From: a virus
Lineage: Duplodnaviria; Caudoviricetes
DNA: 52,452 bases
Direction: 5' to 3' (one strand)
Virus record (IMG/VR): IMGVR_UViG_3300042923_000082
Coordinates: 1-52,452 of that record
Part shown: positions 1 through 52,452 of the stretch, in pieces
How the letters are laid out: every line of letters begins with the position of its first letter
Position numbering within the stretch: the stretch's first letter is position 1
The notes under the pieces: model-generated
What the model saw: the letters and a program-made list of their open reading frames with translations, nothing else
The model's database searches: none
What the model was told of the DNA's origin: nothing
Program-made: the position numbers and the translations under genes

Positions 1-12
1 CCCTAAAAAATC
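1..12. repeat. Terminal 12-nt direct repeat (CCCTAAAAAATC), identical to 52441..52452; genome circularisation overlap or cohesive end
   Basis: Exact match of the first and last 12 nt. Confidence 0.85.
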
Positions 13-2599: not shown

Positions 2600-3136
2600 A
2601 TGTGGGAATCTAAAGTAGATAAAGACTATAGAAATTTTGCAGAACGAATGGGTAGTTTCGAAGACGACTTAGATTTGTCTAGTGATGATTTAAAACATAG
2701 TAAGGTTATAGTAACTAGAAATAGATCAGCTATAATTAATGAAGACGAAATAACCCATTTCGGAATTAAAGGAATGCGTTGGGGTCGTCGTAGTAATTTT
2801 GTAGGACCACCAAAACCAAAACACAGAATAAATACTAATGACTTTAATGCTATTGGAGCTTCAGCTAGAGCTGGTCAAAGTGTATCAACTCTAGGACAGA
2901 CAATAAATCGCGGAGGTTTCAATGGTAAAGTTCTTAAGACCGCTAAAAGTTTAAGTGATGATGATTTGAAAAAATTAACGAATAGACTCAATCTGGAAAA
3001 TAATTACATGAATGCTACAACACAACAAGCCGGTAGAAGTAAGGTTGAGTCTATACTATCCACAGCAGGAGCAACCTTTGGTGTAGTAGCAAGTGCCGCT
3101 TTAATGGTTGATGCTATTTCTAAAGCTAGAGGATAG
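2600..3136 (+). CDS. Hypothetical protein with HFGIKGMRWG motif and C-terminal hydrophobic segment
   Basis: DDLKH and EITHFGIKGMRWG; LSDDDLKKLTNRLNLE; C-terminal AGATFGVVASAALMV. Confidence 0.7.
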   Translation: MWESKVDKDYRNFAERMGSFEDDLDLSSDDLKHSKVIVTRNRSAIINEDEITHFGIKGMRWGRRSNFVGPPKPKHRINTNDFNAIGASARAGQSVSTLGQTINRGGFNGKVLKTAKSLSDDDLKKLTNRLNLENNYMNATTQQAGRSKVESILSTAGATFGVVASAALMVDAISKARG

Positions 3137-25470: not shown

Positions 25471-25505
25471 ATTGGGCTTTACAAAGGCTCTTTCTTTTTG
25501 TTTTT
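25469..25505 (+). terminator. Terminator (GGCTCTTTCTTTTT type)
   Basis: GGGCTTT ACA AAGGCTC + U-tract. Confidence 0.7.
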
Positions 25506-25942: not shown

Positions 25943-25971
25943 AGTGGAGTCTAACAAAGGCTCTTTCTTTT
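25941..25971 (+). terminator. Terminator
   Basis: GGAGTCT AACAA AGGCTCT + TTCTTTT. Confidence 0.7.
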
Positions 25972-26001
25972 ACGCGAAAATTACATACACTATTATGAGA
26001 A
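25972..26001 (+). promoter_or_regulatory. Promoter-like motif P4
   Basis: ACGC GAAAATT ACA TACAC TATTATGAGAA. Confidence 0.8.
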
Positions 26002-26165
26002 ATAGACGACGGTTCAATTCCGTTTATATAGTGGTCTATCTATATCTCAGGACAATGGATAAATGTGGGTGAGAACCCCATGGTAAGATACGAAGGTGGA
26101 CAGACAACTCTGTTCCTACCGGGCAACAGTTTTCGATAGGCTGACCCTGAATACATTGTTCTTTA
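26002..26165 (+). ncRNA. Putative structured non-coding RNA with T-loop-like hairpins
   Basis: No SD/ORF, raised GC; ATAGAC/GTCTAT enclosing ACGG-TTCAATT-CCGT; GGACAATG/CATTGTTC enclosing three hairpins. Confidence 0.65.
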
Positions 26166-26214
26166 AATTTTGCACTGTTAATTTATATATAAAAATTTAA
26201 AATATTAGGAGGTT

Positions 26215-26427
26215 TTGAAAATGATAAAAGATATAACAATATCAAAAGAATATGTAGTAATTTGGATTCCAGGATCAACTGATATATCATTATATGAAAA
26301 GGATGAATTCGAAGGTAAAATGTCAATTGGATATTATAAAAATGATGGGTACATTTACAACGAATTTAAAACTTATGATGAGGCTATTAAGTTCTTTAAA
26401 AAATTATGGACTAACATTATAACATAA
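26215..26427 (+). CDS. Hypothetical protein
   Basis: SD AGGAGG; ORF. Confidence 0.65.
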   Translation: MKMIKDITISKEYVVIWIPGSTDISLYEKDEFEGKMSIGYYKNDGYIYNEFKTYDEAIKFFKKLWTNIIT

Positions 26428-26689: not shown

Positions 26690-27412
26690 ATGTTAAATAA
26701 ATTAATAAGAAAAGACAAACAATTCTTACTAAATTTCACAGCAGTTTTAGGAGTTGGTCTAACTATGGTATCGACAATAAGGGATACTACTAAAGCTTGT
26801 AAATTAGTAACTGAAGATATGACATTAAAAGAGAAAATAAAGAAGACTTGGAAATGTTATATACCATCAGGGGTTATAGCAACTAGTACTATGCTTTGTA
26901 TAATTTACTCGGATAAGGTATCTATGAATGAAAAAATAGCTTTAATAAATACCTTAACCACCATACAAGGTAATTATAGAGATTTAAGAACTGCTGTGGA
27001 TGAGACATGTGATCCCAAGACAAAAGAAGAAATACTTAAGAGGACTGTTAAAAATAAAGTACCACGAGAATTATACATTGAACGAACTGAAGAAAAAATA
27101 TTTTATGAAGAATATAGTGGTAAACACTTCACTAGTACAATCGATAATGTTCTTAAAGCAGAATATATGTTTAATAAACAATTATCGATTGTTGGTTATG
27201 CATCACTAAACGAATTTTATGATTTTCTTGGAGTATCTAAAACTACTGAAGGTGAATATCTTGGTTGGTCAGTATATGATGGATATTTCGGATCATCTTC
27301 TATTAATCCATGGGTAGACTTTGAACATAGTAAAATGGAAGACGATAACGGTATTGAATATTTTCATATAGAGTATAGTAATCAACCAGATGTAAATTAT
27401 GATATATTTTAA
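26690..27412 (+). CDS. DUF6353-like protein, paralog 1
   Basis: N-terminal hydrophobic helices; GYASLNEFYDFLG...GW. Confidence 0.7.
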   Translation: MLNKLIRKDKQFLLNFTAVLGVGLTMVSTIRDTTKACKLVTEDMTLKEKIKKTWKCYIPSGVIATSTMLCIIYSDKVSMNEKIALINTLTTIQGNYRDLRTAVDETCDPKTKEEILKRTVKNKVPRELYIERTEEKIFYEEYSGKHFTSTIDNVLKAEYMFNKQLSIVGYASLNEFYDFLGVSKTTEGEYLGWSVYDGYFGSSSINPWVDFEHSKMEDDNGIEYFHIEYSNQPDVNYDIF

Positions 27413-27676: not shown

Positions 27677-27704
27677 TAAGATTGAGCTTAGGCTCTTTCT
27701 TTTT
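27677..27704 (+). terminator. Terminator (identical to the one at 40961)
   Basis: GAGCT TA GGCTC + TTTCTTTTT. Confidence 0.7.
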
Positions 27705-27734
27705 ACGCAATAAAAACATAGCCTATTATGAGAA
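27705..27734 (+). promoter_or_regulatory. Promoter-like motif P6
   Basis: ACGC AATAAAA ACA TAGCC TATTATGAGAA. Confidence 0.8.
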
Positions 27735-40960: not shown

Positions 40961-40988
40961 TAAGATTGAGCTTAGGCTCTTTCTTTTT
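40961..40988 (+). terminator. Terminator (identical to the one at 27677)
   Basis: GAGCT TA GGCTC + TTTCTTTTT. Confidence 0.7.
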
Positions 40989-41009
40989 ACTTTAAGGAGG
41001 ATAAATTGG

Positions 41010-44194: not shown

Positions 44195-44511
44195 TGAAAA
44201 TAATTGTATATGAAAGAAGTATGTTTGTTGGCATACTTACAGTTAAGAAACCAACTAAAATCGAACCGATCATGCTATTTGAAAATATACAAGAGTGTGA
44301 TGATAGACGCATAAATGTATTGTATTTTCAAGATATGGATTATGGATTAATTATATCTGACACGATAGTTTATCATTACAAAAAACTTTTAAATGATAAA
44401 AATGTCGGAACTGATCTAGATATTTTACATGATGCTGTGTATAGAGCTTTAGGTTGTCCAGCGGTTCTTTTAAATTTGAATAATAAAAAGGAGGTAAAAG
44501 ATAATGAGTAG
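44194..44511 (+). CDS. Hypothetical protein, paralog of 36370..36582
   Basis: Translationally coupled ORF; shared N-terminal ~65 aa pattern. Confidence 0.65.
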   Translation: MKIIVYERSMFVGILTVKKPTKIEPIMLFENIQECDDRRINVLYFQDMDYGLIISDTIVYHYKKLLNDKNVGTDLDILHDAVYRALGCPAVLLNLNNKKEVKDNE

Positions 44512-44593
44512 AGGAAGATATGGATTAGGAAGTTTTTTAATAGATCTGTTTCTAACAAGTCTTACAGGTGGGTTATGGTTACTATACCTTTAA
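44504..44593 (+). CDS. 29-aa membrane microprotein, truncated paralog of 45451..45567
   Basis: SD AGGAGG; MSRGRYGLGSFLIDLFLTSLTGGLWLLYL. Confidence 0.6.
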   Translation: MSRGRYGLGSFLIDLFLTSLTGGLWLLYL

Positions 44594-45142: not shown

Positions 45143-45173
45143 AGAGGGCCTTTACAAGGGCTCTTTTCTTTTT
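45143..45173 (+). terminator. Terminator
   Basis: AGAGGGCCTT TAC AAGGGCTCTT + TTCTTTTT. Confidence 0.75.
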
Positions 45174-45450: not shown

Positions 45451-45567
45451 ATGAGTAAAAGTGGATATGGTATAGTTGGGTTTTTAATAGACTTATTATT
45501 AACAAGTTTGACAGGTGGATTATGGTTATTATTTATATTACTTAGATATTTAAGAAAAAGAGCATGA
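45451..45567 (+). CDS. 38-aa membrane microprotein (not in the ORF track)
   Basis: SD GGAGG; MSKSGYGIVGFLIDLLLTSLTGGLWLLFILLRYLRKRA. Confidence 0.75.
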   Translation: MSKSGYGIVGFLIDLLLTSLTGGLWLLFILLRYLRKRA

Positions 45568-45630: not shown

Positions 45631-46461
45631 ATGGAAAGGGCTGAAAAAAGGAGGCTAGAACGAGAAAGACATAAATATGAAAAACAAAATATTAAAGAAG
45701 ATATTGCGAATAAACAATGGTATTCGAGTTTACCTATGAATAGAAAGATATTTATTGGTAAGTTTGTTGAGAGAAGGACTATCGAGAATGATAATCTAGT
45801 TGCAGCAATTATGGATAAATGTATATTAGGTTCTTTAGACGATAATACGAGTATTGATATTAGACTTATGAAAAAAGTATTAGATGATTGTAATGGTTAT
45901 ATATTAGACTATAAAGAATATTTAGATAAAAATGGTGAAGGTGGTTTTGATATGATAGAAAATGATAAACTTAGAAATGAAGTAATAAAAAGAATTGACG
46001 AATGCATTGAAAATGGGATTACTAAAATTAAATGTATGGCCGCTCTTAAGAAAGAATTTAATTTACCTGGTGCGGAGCTATCTGAAATGTGGGTTGAATG
46101 TGAGAAATCGATGAGTAAACTAATTGATGAGGGGCTTCCTAGTCCTGAGATTATTACAACAGGTCCTAATAATAGTATTAGAGATAGTTTGAAAGTTATT
46201 GATCATTTAAAAATCATTAAGGGTGAATTCGGATATTATCATGTGAGTAATGATGGTGTAAGGTTTAGTAATGATATAAAATTAGTAAACGATGATGTTG
46301 CTTTTAAGAATAAACAAAGAGTTATTGAAGAACATTATCACGCAGTTAACGATATCAATAAAGATATAATGATCTTAGAAGAAAAACTTGTGTTGCTAAA
46401 TAAAGATAAAGATTTAATAAATGCTAAATTTGCAGAGTTTGAACAATCATTTGATATGTAA
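45631..46461 (+). CDS. Hypothetical protein
   Basis: SD GGGGTG before ATG 45631; MERAEKRR; the ORF-track start at 45571 lies in the terminator. Confidence 0.7.
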   Translation: MERAEKRRLERERHKYEKQNIKEDIANKQWYSSLPMNRKIFIGKFVERRTIENDNLVAAIMDKCILGSLDDNTSIDIRLMKKVLDDCNGYILDYKEYLDKNGEGGFDMIENDKLRNEVIKRIDECIENGITKIKCMAALKKEFNLPGAELSEMWVECEKSMSKLIDEGLPSPEIITTGPNNSIRDSLKVIDHLKIIKGEFGYYHVSNDGVRFSNDIKLVNDDVAFKNKQRVIEEHYHAVNDINKDIMILEEKLVLLNKDKDLINAKFAEFEQSFDM

Positions 46462-46472
46462 GGAGTGATGTT

Positions 46473-46763
46473 ATGTTTACAAAAGTATTAATAGATCCAA
46501 TAGAAATAGAATATATACAATTTGATTATACCAATGCAGATTGTGTTCGTAACACAGTTAGTGAATTACAAATGAATATAGAACCGTCTTTGGATAGTTT
46601 AAATCAACCTTATTTAATCATACCAACAACCGATGGAGAACTAACTTGTCATATTGGAGATTATATAATTAAATATCCTGATCCAAAAGACTGGTGTAAA
46701 TTTATGTGTTGTAGTCCAGTGGTATTTAAAAGTCTGATGAAAGTATTTGGCGTGGAGTTATAA
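46473..46763 (+). CDS. Small conserved phage protein, distant paralog of 38646..38891
   Basis: PIEIEYIQF...IPTTDG...IGDYIIK...CSPVVF. Confidence 0.65.
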   Translation: MFTKVLIDPIEIEYIQFDYTNADCVRNTVSELQMNIEPSLDSLNQPYLIIPTTDGELTCHIGDYIIKYPDPKDWCKFMCCSPVVFKSLMKVFGVEL

Positions 46764-46765
46764 GT

Positions 46766-46795
46766 ACGCGAGTTTTACATGTCATATTATGAGAA
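46766..46795 (+). promoter_or_regulatory. Promoter-like motif P12
   Basis: ACGC GAGTTTT ACA TGTCA TATTATGAGAA. Confidence 0.8.
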
Positions 46796-46897
46796 GATAG
46801 CAACTTAATTGTAAAGAGCCTCTCGAAAGATATAGTTCTCTCATGGTAAGAGAGCCCTGAAATAAGGGGTGAGGACATGTTCGAATCCTGTGCTATT
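46796..46897 (+). ncRNA. tRNA-like non-coding RNA with an expanded, multi-hairpin anticodon domain
   Basis: Acceptor-like GATAGCA/TGCTATT, D-like CTT-AATTGTA-AAG, T-arm CATG-TTCGAAT-CCTG, followed by a U-tract. Confidence 0.65.
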
Positions 46898-46933
46898 TCT
46901 TTTTGTTTTATTAAAATATTAGGAGGTTATATT

Positions 46934-47239
46934 ATGAAAGAAGTTCAAGATATATTAGAAGAAGTATTAATTAAAGTCAGAGATTTAAAATATTTTAGAA
47001 ATGTTACATTAACAAAACAAGATATTGAGGCGGTTAGTATTATCAGAGAAGAATTGACTAAATTTGCTGACTCTAAGGATATTGATGCTGTGAAACTAAG
47101 ATTTAATAATAAAGAAAGTGACAAAAGGAAAAAAGATATTGAAACTATAAAAAGTATGGATATTAATACTATGATTGAAATTCGAAATGTAATAAACAAA
47201 TATTTGGATGATATGATTCTAGAAAATGATAATAAATAG
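46934..47239 (+). CDS. Hypothetical protein
   Basis: SD AGGAGG before ATG 46934. Confidence 0.7.
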   Translation: MKEVQDILEEVLIKVRDLKYFRNVTLTKQDIEAVSIIREELTKFADSKDIDAVKLRFNNKESDKRKKDIETIKSMDINTMIEIRNVINKYLDDMILENDNK

Positions 47240-47240
47240 G

Positions 47241-47283
47241 AGAAGAAAAGAGTCCGTTTATAGTACAAGGGCTCTTTCTTTTT
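47241..47283 (+). terminator. Terminator
   Basis: AAAGAGTCC...GGGCTCTTT + CTTTTT. Confidence 0.65.
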
Positions 47284-47564
47284 GCCCACTTTTGTTTTTA
47301 TAAATGTGTCCATGCCCACTTTTTTGTAGATAATTTATTATATTTGGTAATAATTGGAAGAATATTTTGTAAATTTGGATACATTTCTGCCCACTTTGCC
47401 CACTTTTTGCCCACTTTTTGCCCACTTTTGTTAAACCCTGCAGGACAGTGATACCAACGGTTTGCGGACTTTTTGCCCACTTTCCCACTTATTTCTCTTA
47501 TTTATTATGATAAAAAATATAGTATATATAGAGAAGTTGTCCAAATAAAGTGGGCAAGTGGGCA
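47283..47564. repeat. TGCCCACTT iteron cluster, putative replication origin
   Basis: Direct copies at 47283, 47313, 47388, 47397, 47408, 47419, 47474 (variant at 47483); inverted AAGTGGGCA at 47548 and 47556; AT-rich spacers; non-coding. Confidence 0.8.
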
Positions 47565-47574
47565 AAGGTGTTTT

Positions 47575-47604
47575 ACGTGGTTTTTACATGGGCTATTATG
47601 AGAA
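47575..47604 (+). promoter_or_regulatory. Promoter-like motif P13
   Basis: ACGT GGTTTTT ACA TGGGC TATTATGAGAA. Confidence 0.75.
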
Positions 47605-48078: not shown

Positions 48079-48110
48079 TAAAGACTGAGTCTACAAGGGC
48101 TCTTTCTTTT
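48079..48110 (+). terminator. Terminator
   Basis: GAGTCT ACAA GGGCTC + TTTCTTTT. Confidence 0.7.
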
Positions 48111-48873: not shown

Positions 48874-49399
48874 ACATGCTTATTTAGGAGCTTCTAAATA
48901 TAGTTGGTTAAACTATTCAGAAGATAAATTAAAAGAAGCATATAATAGATCTGTAGCAGCACAAAAAGGAACTATGATACATGAGTTCGCAGCTAATTGT
49001 ATAAAATTAAGACAAAAATTACCTAAGAGTGAAAAGACACTAAACAAATATGTTAATGATGCTATTGGATATAAGATGCATTGTGAAAAAATATTATTCT
49101 ATTCTGATAATTGTTTCGGTACTGCTGATGCTATTAGTTTTAGAAATGGTTTGTTGAGAATACATGATTTAAAAACAGGAGTTATTCCAGCTCATATAGA
49201 ACAGCTTCTAATCTATGCAGCTCTATTTTGTTTGGAATATAAACTAAGACCATCGGAAATTGATATTGAGTTAAGAATTTATCAGAATGATGAAGTAGTA
49301 TATCATATACCAGAAGGTGATGATATAGTTCCTATCATGGATAAAATAAAAACTTTTGACAAAATCATAAATGATATTAAGAAAGAGGATGATATTTGA
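48839..49399 (+). CDS. Cas4-like / DUF2800-like PD-(D/E)xK exonuclease
   Basis: GTMIH, E, FGTADAI, IHDLKTG, QLLIYA. Confidence 0.8.
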   Translation: MNFNRHLDLKDKHAYLGASKYSWLNYSEDKLKEAYNRSVAAQKGTMIHEFAANCIKLRQKLPKSEKTLNKYVNDAIGYKMHCEKILFYSDNCFGTADAISFRNGLLRIHDLKTGVIPAHIEQLLIYAALFCLEYKLRPSEIDIELRIYQNDEVVYHIPEGDDIVPIMDKIKTFDKIINDIKKEDDI

Positions 49400-52143
49400 T
49401 GAATGATGATCATCTTGAACATTATGGTACTAAAAAACATTCAGGAAGATATAAATGGGGTTCAGGCAACGATCCATACCAACATAGTGGAGATTTTTTA
49501 AGTAGAGTTGACACATTAGAAAAAAGTGGAATGAGTGAAAAAGATGTAGCTGAAAGTCTTGGTCTAAACACAAGCCAACTTAGAATACAAAAATCACTAG
49601 CTAATTCAGAACGTAAAAATCTATTGTATGAAGAAGCGGTAAGTTTAAGAAATAAAGGTTATTCTCTTTCTAAAACCGCTGAATTAATGGGTTACAATAA
49701 TGACTCATCAATTAGATCATTATTAGATGAAAATAGTTTAGAAAGATCTAAGCAAGCTACAAAAACTGCTGACTTTCTAAAGAAACAAGTTGATGAAAAA
49801 GGTATGATAGATGTTGGTACTGGAGTAGAAAGAGAGCTAGGAGTGTCTAAAGAGAATCTTAAGAAATCTCTTTATATATTGGAGATGCAAGGATATCAAA
49901 CTTTTGGAGGAGGAATAACTCAAGCTACAAACAAAAATCAACAGACTAATTTAAAAGTTCTAACTCCACCAGGAACAGAGCATAAAGATATTTATGAATT
50001 TGATAAGATAAAATCCATAGGTAATTATGTTTCTAGAGATGGTGGTGAGACTTTCGACTCATTCAAATACCCAAGTAGTTTAGATAGTAAAAGATTAGAA
50101 ATAAACTATGGAGATAAAGGTGGATCTGATAAGGATGGAGTTGTAGAATTAAGAAGGGGAGTTAAAGATCTATCATTAGGTAATTCAAACTATGCTCAAG
50201 TTAGAGTCATGGTCGATGATAAACATTATATTAAAGGAATGGCTGTATATACTGATGATTTACCAAAGGGTGTTGATGTTAGGTTTAATACTAATAAACC
50301 TTCTGGAACTCCTTTGGAAAAAGTATTAAAACCTATAAAAGAAGATCCAGATAATCCTTTCGGTTCATTGATAAAAGCAGGTGGTCAAAATTATTATGAT
50401 GATCCTAATGGTAAACATATAGACCCAATAACTGGAAAAAAACAATCATTGTCATTAATTAATAAAAGAGCAGAAGAAGGAGATTGGACCGAATGGAAAG
50501 ATAAATTACCTTCGCAATTTTTGGCTAAACAAAATCTATCACTTATCAAGAAACAATTAGATCTAACAAAAAGTGAAAGAGAATCTGAATTTGATGAAAT
50601 TAATTCACTATCTAATCCAACAATTAAAAAAGCTTTATTAAAAACGTTTTCTGATGATTGTGATTCTGCTGCAGTTCATTTAAAGTCAGCAGCTCTACCA
50701 AGACAGAAGTATCATGTAATACTTCCTATAAACTCATTAAAGGACAACGAAGTATATGCACCTAATTATGAGAATGGTGAAAAACTAGCTTTAGTGAGAT
50801 TTCCACATGGTGGTACATTTGAAATTCCTATACTAACAGTTAATAATAAAAATAAAGATGGTAAGAATATTATAGGATCTAATGCTAAAGATGCTGTTGG
50901 TATAACTAGTAAAGTAGCTGAAAGATTATCAGGTGCAGATTTTGATGGTGATACAGTATTAACAGTACCTACAGGAAAGAATGTAAACATAACTTCTACT
51001 AATCCGTTAAAAGGGTTAGAAGGATTCGATAGTAAGTCTTATAAATATTCTAAGTCTAAGACTGATAAAGATGGTAATGAACATTACTATACTGCTGACG
51101 GTACAGAATTTAGAAGAATGAAGAACACACAAACCGAAATGGGTAAAATTTCTAATCTTATAACTGATATGACTTTAAAAGGTGCTTCAGAAGATGATCT
51201 AGCTAAAGCAGTTAGACATTCAATGGTTGTTATAGATGCTGAAAAGCACATACTAAACTATAAGAAGTCTGAAGTAGATAATGGTATAGCTTCTTTAAAA
51301 AGTAAGTATCAAGGTCATTATGACGATCAAGGTAAGTGGCATTCTGGTGGGGCATCGACATTATTATCTAGAGCTAAATCCAAAATAGATATAGTTAAAC
51401 GAAAAGGATCTCCAATTATAGATCCAATTACAGGAGAACAATCGTGGAAAGAGAATTATCAAGAATACACTGACCCTAAAGGAAAAGTTCAAGTTAGAGC
51501 TCAAAAGTCTACTAAGATGTTCGAGACTAATGATGCTCGTACATTATCAAGTGGAACACCTCAAGAAGAAGCTTATGCTGACTATGCTAATAAGATGAAG
51601 TCTTTAGCTAATCAAGCTCGTAAAGAGATGATCTCAACAGGAGACATCAAGTATTCCGCTGAAGCTAAAACTAAGTATTTAAATGAGGTTAATTCTTTAA
51701 ACGCCCAGTTAAATGTATCACTAATGAACGCTCCAAAGGAAAGGCGTGCTCAAGTAATAGCAAATACTGCTATTAAAGCTAAGCAACAAGAGTATCCAGA
51801 TTTATCTAAAGGTGAGTTAAAGAAGATAAGTCAACAAGCTTTAAACGCTGCACGAATTCAGGTTGGAGCTAAGAGAGAACTTATAAAGATCTCAGATAAA
51901 GAATGGGAAGCTATACAAGCCGGTGCAATAAGTCCTAACAAACTAAGTCAGATAATAAACAACTCTGACATGGACATACTAAGACAGAGAGCTACACCTA
52001 GATCTACTAAAGAACTAAGTCAAGTTAAGATTAATAAGATTAATTCAATGTCTAAGTCTGGTTATAGTACTGCTGAGATAGCTAAAAGTTTAGGAATGTC
52101 AAGCACAACTATTGTTAACTACATGAAAGGAGGATTGGATTAA
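49396..52143 (+). CDS. Single-chain double-psi beta-barrel DNA-dependent RNA polymerase (YonO/RdRP-like) with HTH domains
   Basis: KDG, AQVR-x8-IKG (barrel B-like); LVRFPH and LSGADFDGD (catalytic barrel); HTH-like segments at the N- and C-termini. Confidence 0.8.
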   Translation: MMNDDHLEHYGTKKHSGRYKWGSGNDPYQHSGDFLSRVDTLEKSGMSEKDVAESLGLNTSQLRIQKSLANSERKNLLYEEAVSLRNKGYSLSKTAELMGYNNDSSIRSLLDENSLERSKQATKTADFLKKQVDEKGMIDVGTGVERELGVSKENLKKSLYILEMQGYQTFGGGITQATNKNQQTNLKVLTPPGTEHKDIYEFDKIKSIGNYVSRDGGETFDSFKYPSSLDSKRLEINYGDKGGSDKDGVVELRRGVKDLSLGNSNYAQVRVMVDDKHYIKGMAVYTDDLPKGVDVRFNTNKPSGTPLEKVLKPIKEDPDNPFGSLIKAGGQNYYDDPNGKHIDPITGKKQSLSLINKRAEEGDWTEWKDKLPSQFLAKQNLSLIKKQLDLTKSERESEFDEINSLSNPTIKKALLKTFSDDCDSAAVHLKSAALPRQKYHVILPINSLKDNEVYAPNYENGEKLALVRFPHGGTFEIPILTVNNKNKDGKNIIGSNAKDAVGITSKVAERLSGADFDGDTVLTVPTGKNVNITSTNPLKGLEGFDSKSYKYSKSKTDKDGNEHYYTADGTEFRRMKNTQTEMGKISNLITDMTLKGASEDDLAKAVRHSMVVIDAEKHILNYKKSEVDNGIASLKSKYQGHYDDQGKWHSGGASTLLSRAKSKIDIVKRKGSPIIDPITGEQSWKENYQEYTDPKGKVQVRAQKSTKMFETNDARTLSSGTPQEEAYADYANKMKSLANQARKEMISTGDIKYSAEAKTKYLNEVNSLNAQLNVSLMNAPKERRAQVIANTAIKAKQQEYPDLSKGELKKISQQALNAARIQVGAKRELIKISDKEWEAIQAGAISPNKLSQIINNSDMDILRQRATPRSTKELSQVKINKINSMSKSGYSTAEIAKSLGMSSTTIVNYMKGGLD

Positions 52144-52390: not shown

Positions 52391-52452
52391 ACCGGGGGAG
52401 GGGTCTTCAAAAACCACACCCCCTATTTGATCGGGTGCCTCCCTAAAAAATC
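52391..52452. other. G/C-run-rich genome end (putative cos/packaging region continuing into 1..24)
   Basis: ACCGGGGGAGGGG...CCCCCT...CCCTAAAAAATCCCCGGGGGTA in an AT-rich genome, adjacent to HNH and terminase genes. Confidence 0.55.

Follow-up and report, generated by a model that had tools for sequence, protein, structure and literature searches.

We analyzed a tRNA-like element at positions 46,796 to 46,897 of the IMG/VR virus record IMGVR_UViG_3300042923_000082 (Caudoviricetes), whose whole length of 52,452 bp, with a G+C content (GC) of 31.5%, is called the window here. A sequence-only reading of this DNA had described the element as a tRNA mimic with its own promoter, with a multi-hairpin domain in place of the anticodon arm. 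Comparison with related phages indicates that the locus is probably a divergent member of a phage family of tRNA-derived small RNAs, which we delimit here. Four contig sets from public DNA runs match this region of the window with zero differences and hold no sequence variation usable for testing pairing.

All large open reading frames (ORFs) of the window are on the plus strand, and PHROG matches (terminase, portal, tape measure, lysis genes, DNA polymerase-primase, and exonuclease) identify a siphovirus, with no integrase among the 76 ORFs scanned against PHROGs. The genome also encodes an ‘RNA-dependent RNA polymerase’-type protein, which is about 50% identical to its best GenBank relatives and 55–82% identical to closer ones in IMG/VR, of which 80 out of more than 580 were kept. 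According to 10.1101/842583, a polymerase of this kind, there called YonO-like, is the signature of a phage supercluster that includes Faecalibacterium phage FP_oengus, relatives of Lactococcus phage 1706, and several actinophage clusters, and the cluster BI phages are credited with zero predicted tRNA genes.

The element lies in the 170-nucleotide (nt) gap between an ORF of 96 amino acids (aa) at 46473-46763 and a 101-aa ORF, behind a copy of a motif of about 34 nt (..ACGC..ACA..TATTATGAGAA) that recurs at least 11 times in the window. The motif core, TATTATGARRA, occurs 14 times (13 on the plus strand) against 0.92 ± 0.91 in shuffles, none of 100 shuffles reaching 14. The motif is a genuine phage promoter, and the claim that the element has its own promoter is thereby upheld: the core copy at 46785-46795 ends one base upstream of where the element was first drawn to begin. 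An RBS (ribosome-binding site) and an ORF follow within 32 nt in 11 of the 13 plus-strand copies, and two copies have long leaders, 138 nt here and 213 nt behind the copy at 25991. The features of the locus are as follows.

46762-46795, plus strand: phage promoter copy P12, AAGTACGCGAGTTTTACATGTCATATTATGAGAA (repeat family D1)
46900-46909, plus strand: T-tract TTTTTGTTTT, directly after the closing helix and C73 of the element, with no encoded CCA
46921-46926, plus strand: RBS AGGAGG (from the sequence and the ORF list)
46934-47239, plus strand: 101-aa ORF (ORF list) without a promoter motif of its own
49396-52143, plus strand: 915-aa ‘RNA-dependent RNA polymerase’-type protein (PHROG match)

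As the 101-aa ORF has no promoter motif of its own, it can be reached solely by read-through from P12 or from upstream. It has no PHROG match, no Pfam match above the cut-off, and no relatives in GenBank phages (tblastn) or IMG/VR. The T-tract looks like a terminator tail and resembles the ends (GGCTCTTTCTTTTT) of the window’s hairpin terminators (families D11 and D12). It abuts the closing helix of a multi-branch fold, and a simple terminator scan of 46000-47600 calls none. A small peptide encoded in the leader was rejected: 46785-46960 contains no noteworthy ORF, and an in-frame ATG at 46877 has a poorer RBS than the ATG at 46934.

The strings on which the first description was built are all present: GATAGCA (46796-46802) and TGCTATT (46891-46897) as an acceptor-like outer stem, CTT-AATTGTA-AAG (46804-46816) as a ‘D-like arm’, CCTC (46820-46823) and GAGG (46871-46874) as an inner stem, GTTCTCT-CATGGTA-AGAGAGC (46835-46855) and CCT-GAAATA-AGG (46856-46867) as hairpins, and TTCGAAT (46880-46886) as a T loop followed by TTTCTTTTTGTTTT, a U-tract without CCA, as had been noted. 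Predicted pairing probabilities are 0.8–0.95 for the outer stem, the CCUC/GAGG stem, and a CCCU/AGGG hairpin. A loose version of this tRNA frame (a 7-base-pair (bp) acceptor, a T arm with at most one mismatch, and a D arm) occurs at two places in the genome, the second being the coding region 2606-2676, and at least once in 21.5% of 200 dinucleotide-shuffled genomes. At default stringency, ARAGORN finds zero tRNAs in the window, also with introns allowed, and no transfer-messenger RNA (tmRNA), and no Rfam family, riboswitch, T-box, and other curated families included, matches the window at gathering thresholds. The general tRNA model RF00005 (gathering cut-off 29 bits) has no match at the site at E ≤ 10, and the other Rfam matches there are noise; a clean match to a standard tRNA, which would have spoken against a mimic, is thus absent. 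With relaxed settings, ARAGORN makes 35 calls in the window, the -ps70 setting being at noise level, and at -ps70 it draws a cloverleaf at 46829-46900 that is the same as the one given by the family model described below. On its own terms, the tRNA-like observation is not beyond chance; it exceeds chance because of homology only. The GC of the element is 41% against the genome mean of 31.5%, and only 5.6% of 100-nt windows reach at least 40%.

A promoter-fused tRNA-like family in related phages

A search of the records of five relatives with leader DNA matched the T loop and tail in one of them (G003), where the order is promoter motif, tRNA, C, T-tract, RBS, and gene. This tRNA scores 50.5 bits with RF00005 and is typed by ARAGORN as ‘tRNA-??? 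(atac)’, its loop having 8 nt. RF00005 found exactly one tRNA above its cut-off in 22 of 50 related records, with scores of 35.8–72.8 bits for clear family members. Of the 22 oriented loci, 21 begin directly at the promoter motif (..ACGC..ACA..TATTATG(G)AGAA), ...TATTATGGA running without interruption into GAAACAGTTAGCTCA; the lone exception is an ordinary Met tRNA, which carries CCA. At the 3′ end, the family reads ...ACTGNTTCTC and then TTTTATTTTT.

An alignment of 16 distinct sequences (A3) gives a cloverleaf with an 8-bp acceptor that includes a G-1:C73 pair. In this alignment, 90.9% of the cells are paired and 16 of the 22 pairs change on both sides; no measure was reached by any of 500 shuffles, and slid controls were 29–48% paired. 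The T stem is 100% paired across the 16 sequences, G-1:C73 is G:C in 13 of them, and the acceptor helix is extended in the family by this pair and two more. Of 37 distinct sequences, 35 have complementary bases at the tertiary pair 15:48 (G:C in 14, U:A in 10, and A:U in 11), and since this pair covaries together with the stems, the L-shape itself appears to be kept. Judged by these comparisons, the family is evidently real and under selection. Covariation among homologs had been proposed as a check on the first reading, and its outcome is divided: the family cloverleaf covaries, but no homolog was found for the duplicated form seen in the window (see below).

A covariance model built from A3 (R1) matches 24 of 46 records, including 13 of the 19 with at least 90% completeness. 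In the cultured phage FP_oengus, it matches 2935-3007 with 72.7 bits; this copy lies unannotated between gp05 and gp06 of the RefSeq record and receives the ARAGORN label ‘tRNA-??? (ga)’. Promoter-fused copies are also carried by 13 bacterial genome records, mostly of Lachnospiraceae, and the prophage carriers include Hungatella hathewayi, Enterocloster lavalensis, and [Ruminococcus] torques ATCC 27756. R1 finds nothing in Arthrobacter phage Mudcat, and one family member (L100) had no blastn match in GenBank phages. We found no description of this family in PMC open-access or bioRxiv full text.

In FP_oengus, which has a higher-GC host, the promoter motif is kept as GCGCGAAAAATGCA-N-CCTTATGGAAGG (in 2865-3100 of NC_047916.1), and it recurs directly after the tRNA-like gene. 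The conservation of the motif reaches beyond the sigma-70 hexamers, which suggests that the phage’s own polymerase uses this promoter.

The anticodon arm is the variable part of the family. A pattern scan of IMG/VR listed 80 loci out of at least 110 matches, which reduce to 54 distinct bodies: 26 promoter-fused sequences and 28 others, three of which (L176, L208, and L210) are family members by eye. The pattern required conserved D and T arms, so the scan is biased toward them, and set no limits on the 15:48 pair, the spacing, or any part of the T stem except its last base. Among the matches listed, the spacing between D arm and T loop is the canonical 27 in 20 of the 28 other sequences and in 3 of the 26 promoter-fused ones, 13 of which have 24; the remaining promoter-fused spacings are 25, 26 (four), 28 (two), 29, 30, and 41. 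Long insertions in the anticodon arm occur in the family, with spacings of 41 and 45. The stem of the short arm itself covaries (CCACA/TGTGG, CCGC/GCGG, CCTCA/TGAGG, and CAAC/GTTG).

ARAGORN types 22 of 25 ordinary phage tRNAs normally. Of 29 family sequences, it labeled 18 ‘???’, missed 1, and assigned a type to 10; among these ten, six have A at position 34 of the anticodon (aaa, aac, or aat). To our knowledge, these A34 anticodons are not used by bacteria. On 24 loci from related records, it gave 16 ‘???’, 2 Ile(tat), and one each of Glu(ttc), Ser(tga), and ordinary Met(cat), with no call for 3, and 10 of the 13 copies in bacterial genomes were again ‘???’. The family would therefore mostly be unable to decode, and these sequences show that selection acts on the fold but leaves a 7-nt anticodon loop unconstrained.

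Three IMG/VR contigs from unrelated phages (L150, L200, and L201) carry tRNA-like genes beside ordinary tRNAs; their spacing is aberrant (24 or 33) and ARAGORN makes no call. Anticodon-arm oddities may therefore not be confined to the promoter-fused family.

The genes downstream of the family element vary, with a DUF6353 gene in 5 of 17 loci and unrelated ORFs elsewhere. The best counterpart of the DUF6353 protein in the window is encoded at 26690-27412, and this recurrent neighbor places the usual position of the family near 26 kb, not 46.8 kb. The neighboring proteins, DUF6353 and ORFs without a family, offer no functional lead.

At 25968-26214, upstream of the first DUF6353 gene, another promoter copy of the window is followed by a long leader (213 nt), in the place where relatives carry the tRNA-like gene. 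Its start is minihelix-like: GAGAAATAGA pairs with TCTAT..CTC around a T arm, GACGG-TTCAATT-CCGTT, which matches R1 positions 42–62 with 8.9 bits. The leader continues for about 110 nt, within which GC reaches its genome-wide maximum over 100 nt (50%), and its fold has a z-score of −1.24. No homolog was found in GenBank phages or IMG/VR, and Rfam gave only noise around 25950-26250 at E ≤ 10. In G003 (L083, 1285-1405), a unit of promoter, GC-rich RNA of about 110 nt, and T-tract stands immediately 5′ of the tRNA-like gene; in the 46 records searched, the unit had no match except itself, and its hairpins are loosely similar to those of the 26-kb leader of the window.

The window element in the family register

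In the 52 kb of the window, R1 has one match at E ≤ 10: 46829-46901, with 36.7 bits and E = 2.7e-8 (rough calibration), spanning model positions 1–72 of 72. This match supports the earlier claim that the element is tRNA-derived. It leads to the following assignments.

46829-46901, plus strand: tRNA-like core, copy 2 (R1 match)
46829, plus strand: G-1, predicted to pair with C73 (46899); the T-tract comes next, with no CCA
46830-46836, plus strand: acceptor 5′ strand, ATATAGT (R1 alignment)
46839-46842 with 46850-46853, plus strand: D arm, TCTC/GAGA, with loop ATGGTAA (R1 alignment)
46855-46858 with 46865-46868, plus strand: anticodon arm, CCCT/AGGG, with the 6-nt loop GAAATA (R1 alignment)
46869-46874, plus strand: variable region, (G)TGAGG (R1 alignment)
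46875-46879 with 46887-46891, plus strand: T arm, ACATG/CCTGT, with loop TTCGAAT (46880-46886) and one U·C mismatch
46892-46898, plus strand: acceptor 3′ strand, GCTATTT, with C73 at 46899
46791-46824, plus strand: putative degenerate 5′ partial duplicate, copy 1 (alignment to 46825-46862)

Three hallmarks of tRNAs are present in the core: a T loop, TTCGAAT, that fits TTCRANY; a D loop containing GG; and an acceptor stem of 7 bp (ATATAGT/GCTATTT, with U·G at 7:66). In the R1 alignment, G26 stands between the D arm and the anticodon arm, and C73 is followed by TTTTTG. Folded in isolation, the core forms a cloverleaf (−16.7 kcal/mol). In this register, the parts of the molecule are redistributed. 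The supposed inserted hairpin GTTCTCT-CATGGTA-AGAGAGC is the true D arm and CCCT-GAAATA-AGGG the true anticodon arm, so that the hairpins thought to replace the anticodon arm are in fact a D arm and a short anticodon arm. Likewise, CCTC and GAGG do not close a domain, since GAGG is the variable loop and CCTC belongs to copy 1. The acceptor 5′ strand and ‘D-like arm’ first proposed also fall in the degenerate duplicate, and the core starts 33 nt later. Of the original drawing, the canonical T loop stands but the frame of the molecule around it does not.

The idea of a mimic rather than a decoder fares better, being supported by the 14-nt anticodon arm here and by aberrant loops in most relatives. 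This arm compares with 17 nt in normal tRNAs and has no 7-nt loop, no U33 plus triplet, and no 5-bp stem; 14 nt is also the commonest class in the family. With a 4-bp stem and a 6-nt loop, the element is very unlikely to decode. We consider homology to the family together with a non-decoding nature to be likely or even highly likely.

The segment 46791-46824 is read as a degenerate tandem partial duplication of the core’s 5′ third. It comprises the initially transcribed GAGAA, the strand AGATAGC (46795-46801), which resembles an acceptor, the vestigial D arm CTT-AATTGTA-AAG, and GCCTC. Its alignment to 46825-46862 has a score of 8, which 1.5% of 5000 shuffles reach, and CTTAATTGTAAAG matches the R1 D arm (positions 12–24) with 4.4 bits. 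AGATAGC begins at the fifth base after TATTAT, which is the register of family position 1. Copy 1 pairs slightly better with the 3′ strand than copy 2 does (−10.1 versus −8.6 kcal/mol; ensemble probability about 0.9 versus 0.05), which is why the fold first proposed looks convincing.

Searches for homologs of the element and its surroundings returned little. Blastn of 46700-46960 against GenBank phages was empty, tblastn with the upstream ORF gave weak matches only, the best in Clostridium phage LPCPA58, and an exact 23-mer of the element was not found in IMG/VR. Against the loci of 80 relatives, blastn matched only the promoter and the T-rich tail. A pattern scan of IMG/VR for copy 2 gave 0 matches, and a pattern of copy 1 plus the T loop gave 46 matches in metagenome contigs, all unrelated bacterial tRNAs or coding DNA.

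R1 scores ordinary tRNAs at 22–67 bits and clear family members at 60–91 bits. Evidence specific to the family is found in the promoter setting, in the tail, in the arm length of 14 nt, and in the lack of a match to the general tRNA model at the site. Several findings weigh against counting the element as a member in good standing. Its 36.7 bits would by themselves indicate only a ‘tRNA-like of this flavour’ that is not family-specific. It is also the sole copy seen with a leader between promoter and core, 33 nt (46796-46828) parting the two where its relatives have direct fusion. The acceptor has U·U at 2:71, the T stem has U·C at 52:62 where 16 members are fully paired, and U15 faces G48 where nearly all family sequences have complementary bases. 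In the complete element, the ‘D-like arm’ and the T arm have pairing probabilities of about zero, and the minimum free energy of −26 kcal/mol is hardly different from that of shuffles (−25.4 ± 3.5; z −0.18), 78 of 200 shuffles being as stable. No homolog of the duplicated form was found that could show covariation. Finally, the closest relative of the window (82% RNA polymerase identity) has no R1 match and a different gene behind the orthologous promoter.

These findings bear most directly on the possibility, which we take seriously but hold to be on the weaker side, that the element is an inactive relic: a decaying family copy, broken by partial duplication and point mutations, that survives as a long 5′ untranslated region (UTR). 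Its R1 score is the second-lowest among promoter-fused copies (only L146, at 26.2 bits, is lower), the T-stem and acceptor mismatches and an insertion unique to the window look like damage, the fold is no better than that of shuffles, and the family can be dispensed with, since 22 of 46 records, the closest relative included, lack it. However, phage genomes seldom retain 100 nt of junk, the GC stands well above the genome mean, the isolated core still folds as a cloverleaf, and the promoter, C73 with the T-tract, and the closing helix are intact (with copy 1, 6 Watson-Crick pairs and 1 G·U). Rather unlikely, in our view, is a leader acting in cis on the 101-aa ORF with no free RNA, whether as a leaky terminator or attenuator, as a 5′ stabilizer with a base-paired 5′ end, or as a processing signal for RNase P or RNase Z. 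That ORF has a strong RBS but no promoter of its own, many relatives likewise show the element, a T-tract, and an RBS plus gene with no new promoter, and two 5′ strands that compete for one 3′ strand beside a U-tract resemble a terminator/antiterminator choice. Yet the downstream gene is not conserved (DUF6353 stands there in fewer than a third of the loci), a new promoter motif follows the element in FP_oengus, some relatives have a separate hairpin terminator, and a single-gene regulator needs neither a conserved tRNA elbow nor a covarying 15:48 pair. Both the relic and the cis-acting leader are sub-cases of the same family identity.

It is improbable that the first architecture, three hairpins in a domain closed by CCTC/GAGG, is the evolved functional one. 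The closing helix and CCUC/GAGG do dominate the ensemble, copy 1 is the better partner of the 3′ strand and stands in the promoter register, and long anticodon-arm insertions exist in the family. By homology, however, two of the hairpins correspond to the D arm and the anticodon arm, and GAGG belongs to the variable loop. The one hairpin left over is just 2 bp long, GG is missing from the ‘D-like arm’, whose predicted probability is almost nil, and the drawing has no variable region and about 37 nt where tRNAs have 2. An unusual decoding tRNA of the frameshift, suppressor, or short-intron type is very improbable. In a few members, a 7-nt loop does present a natural anticodon (Ile UAU, Glu UUC, Leu UAA, or Lys UUU), and some have 8-nt loops like those of frameshift suppressors, but the 6-nt loop GAAAUA of the window has no place for U33 plus a triplet, the intron-allowed default ARAGORN run was empty, CCA is missing, and the T stem and acceptor are mismatched. 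Chance resemblance in an ordinary 5′ UTR, which the unremarkable fold, the frequency of the loose frame in shuffled genomes, and the many relaxed ARAGORN calls would invite, is just as improbable in the face of a single R1 match in 52 kb that lies right behind the family’s type of promoter and has the same tail.

Two further candidates were rejected. An attP site with a tRNA fragment does not fit a genome whose scanned ORFs include no integrase and an element that is a whole cloverleaf, not a 3′ fragment, and the idea that the element is the decayed remnant of tRNAs clustered beside the RNA polymerase gene finds no counterpart in relatives, where 60 of 60 loci around that gene have 0 tRNAs.

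Other elements of the window

Between the 101-aa ORF and the next promoter (47571-47604), the non-coding stretch 47388-47494 (50% GC) holds at least 5 tandem or dispersed copies of an 11-nt unit (TTTGCCCACTT-like), which look like iterons or a regulator-binding array. The window also has a family of hairpin terminators, GAGYC..loop..GGCTC and then TTTCTTTTT, which often run into the TTTTACGC of the next promoter and are also seen in relatives.

25472-25500, 25945-25971, 27680-27706, 40964-40990, 45143-45171, and 48082-48110: hairpin terminators

A sub-threshold RF00005 match at 975-1030 (25.5 bits, E = 1e-4 for the record), inside an HNH endonuclease ORF (910-1323), is probably due to chance. 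Two small ORFs are paralogous, their 82-nt starts (44504-44585 and 45451-45532) being 77% identical (MS.(G)GYG...FLIDL..TSLTGGLWLLW), and in the closest relative (L003, near 2938) a homolog of them precedes the orthologous promoter. The first and last 12 bases of the window (1-12 and 52441-52452) are identical (CCCTAAAAAATC), which would agree with an assembly that is circularly permuted or has terminal redundancy; in IMG/VR, however, the record is classed as linear.

Likeness to known systems and a possible role

With ordinary phage tRNAs, as modeled by RF00005, the family shares the cloverleaf, the TTCGAAT T loop, and GG in the D loop. It differs in the promoter fused to position 1, the extended acceptor helix, a T-tract in place of CCA, and anticodon arms that are mostly of the wrong length, and the window copy goes unmatched by that model even at E ≤ 10. 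According to the abstract of PMC3399842, the pseudo-tRNA ‘tRNA-Other’ of Bacillus cereus has no translation function and yet has a cellular effect. The likeness is that of a non-translating tRNA-like product, the one being bacterial and chromosomal and the other phage-borne. We know of no promoter fusion or variable anticodon arm in tRNA-Other.

tmRNA, the bacterial Y-RNA-like YrlA, and the 3′ tRNA-like structures of viruses keep the acceptor/T-arm ‘top half’ or elbow of tRNAs and do not decode. Unlike these, the present element has no tag reading frame, it is empty in the tmRNA mode of ARAGORN, and it has no Rfam match; moreover, the family keeps the whole cloverleaf and loses only the anticodon loop. 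Leaderless tRNAs transcribed from position 1 have reportedly been found in Nanoarchaeum equitans. The promoter of the family is similar in that its first transcribed bases are the 5′ acceptor strand, and the 5′ end of the family RNA may thus be made by initiation rather than by RNase P. However, the Nanoarchaeum equitans case concerns decoding archaeal tRNAs, and in the window the duplicate of 33 nt parts promoter from core. Phage tRNAs are also said to counter tRNA-cleaving defenses such as PARIS as functional replacement tRNAs, a model on which the idea of a decoy set out below is built; an anticodon-less RNA, though, could only compete or inhibit, not replace.

If the locus is a divergent family member, the following scheme may be proposed. 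In the family, a conserved promoter is fused to the 5′ acceptor strand, the acceptor, D, and T arms and 15:48 are retained, and the anticodon arm is free in length and usually without a 7-nt loop; the RNA would therefore keep the L-shape of tRNA without decoding. Family RNAs would start within GAGAAACAG, and in the window transcription would start near 46795 and terminate mostly in the T-tract at about 46900-46909, giving an RNA of approximately 105–115 nt with some read-through into the 101-aa ORF. Its 3′ acceptor strand could pair with either 5′ copy, which would yield the fold of the sequence-only reading or a cloverleaf whose leader of 34 nt might be cut off by RNase P. It is possible that the window copy is only weakly functional, given damage that the family otherwise avoids.

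Such an RNA would presumably act through its tRNA shape on a host tRNA-binding factor. The likeliest role would be that of a competitor or decoy for a factor that recognizes the elbow and the acceptor end of tRNAs, for instance a defense enzyme that targets tRNAs or an enzyme that processes them. Among the functions suggested earlier, T-box and stringent-response sensing are the least likely, since both need an anticodon. A decoy or counter-defense role is to be taken as a tentative suggestion. In its most developed form, which we would call speculative, the family would be a dedicated anticodon-less tRNA that jams or misleads a host enzyme reading tRNA shape, and so an RNA-based counter-defense of a new type. 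The 5′ end of the primary transcript would then be set by a promoter for the YonO-like RNA polymerase, the target could be a tRNA-cleaving or tRNA-modifying immune effector, RNase P or RNase Z, or the CCA-adding enzyme, and the shortened or varied anticodon arm would escape both cleavage at that arm and translation.

From a biological perspective, phage tRNAs are usually explained by codon usage and lately as spare parts against tRNA-cleaving defenses. In the present case, phages and prophages of gut and soil Firmicutes form a widespread group, about half of which keep a single tRNA-shaped gene. Its fused promoter and covarying L-shape, together with an anticodon loop that mostly appears unusable, point to a job for the tRNA shape outside translation. 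In annotation, the copies that are detected would be reported as tRNAs of undetermined type, and the window copy is an example of how an element of this kind can diverge until tRNA finders no longer detect it.

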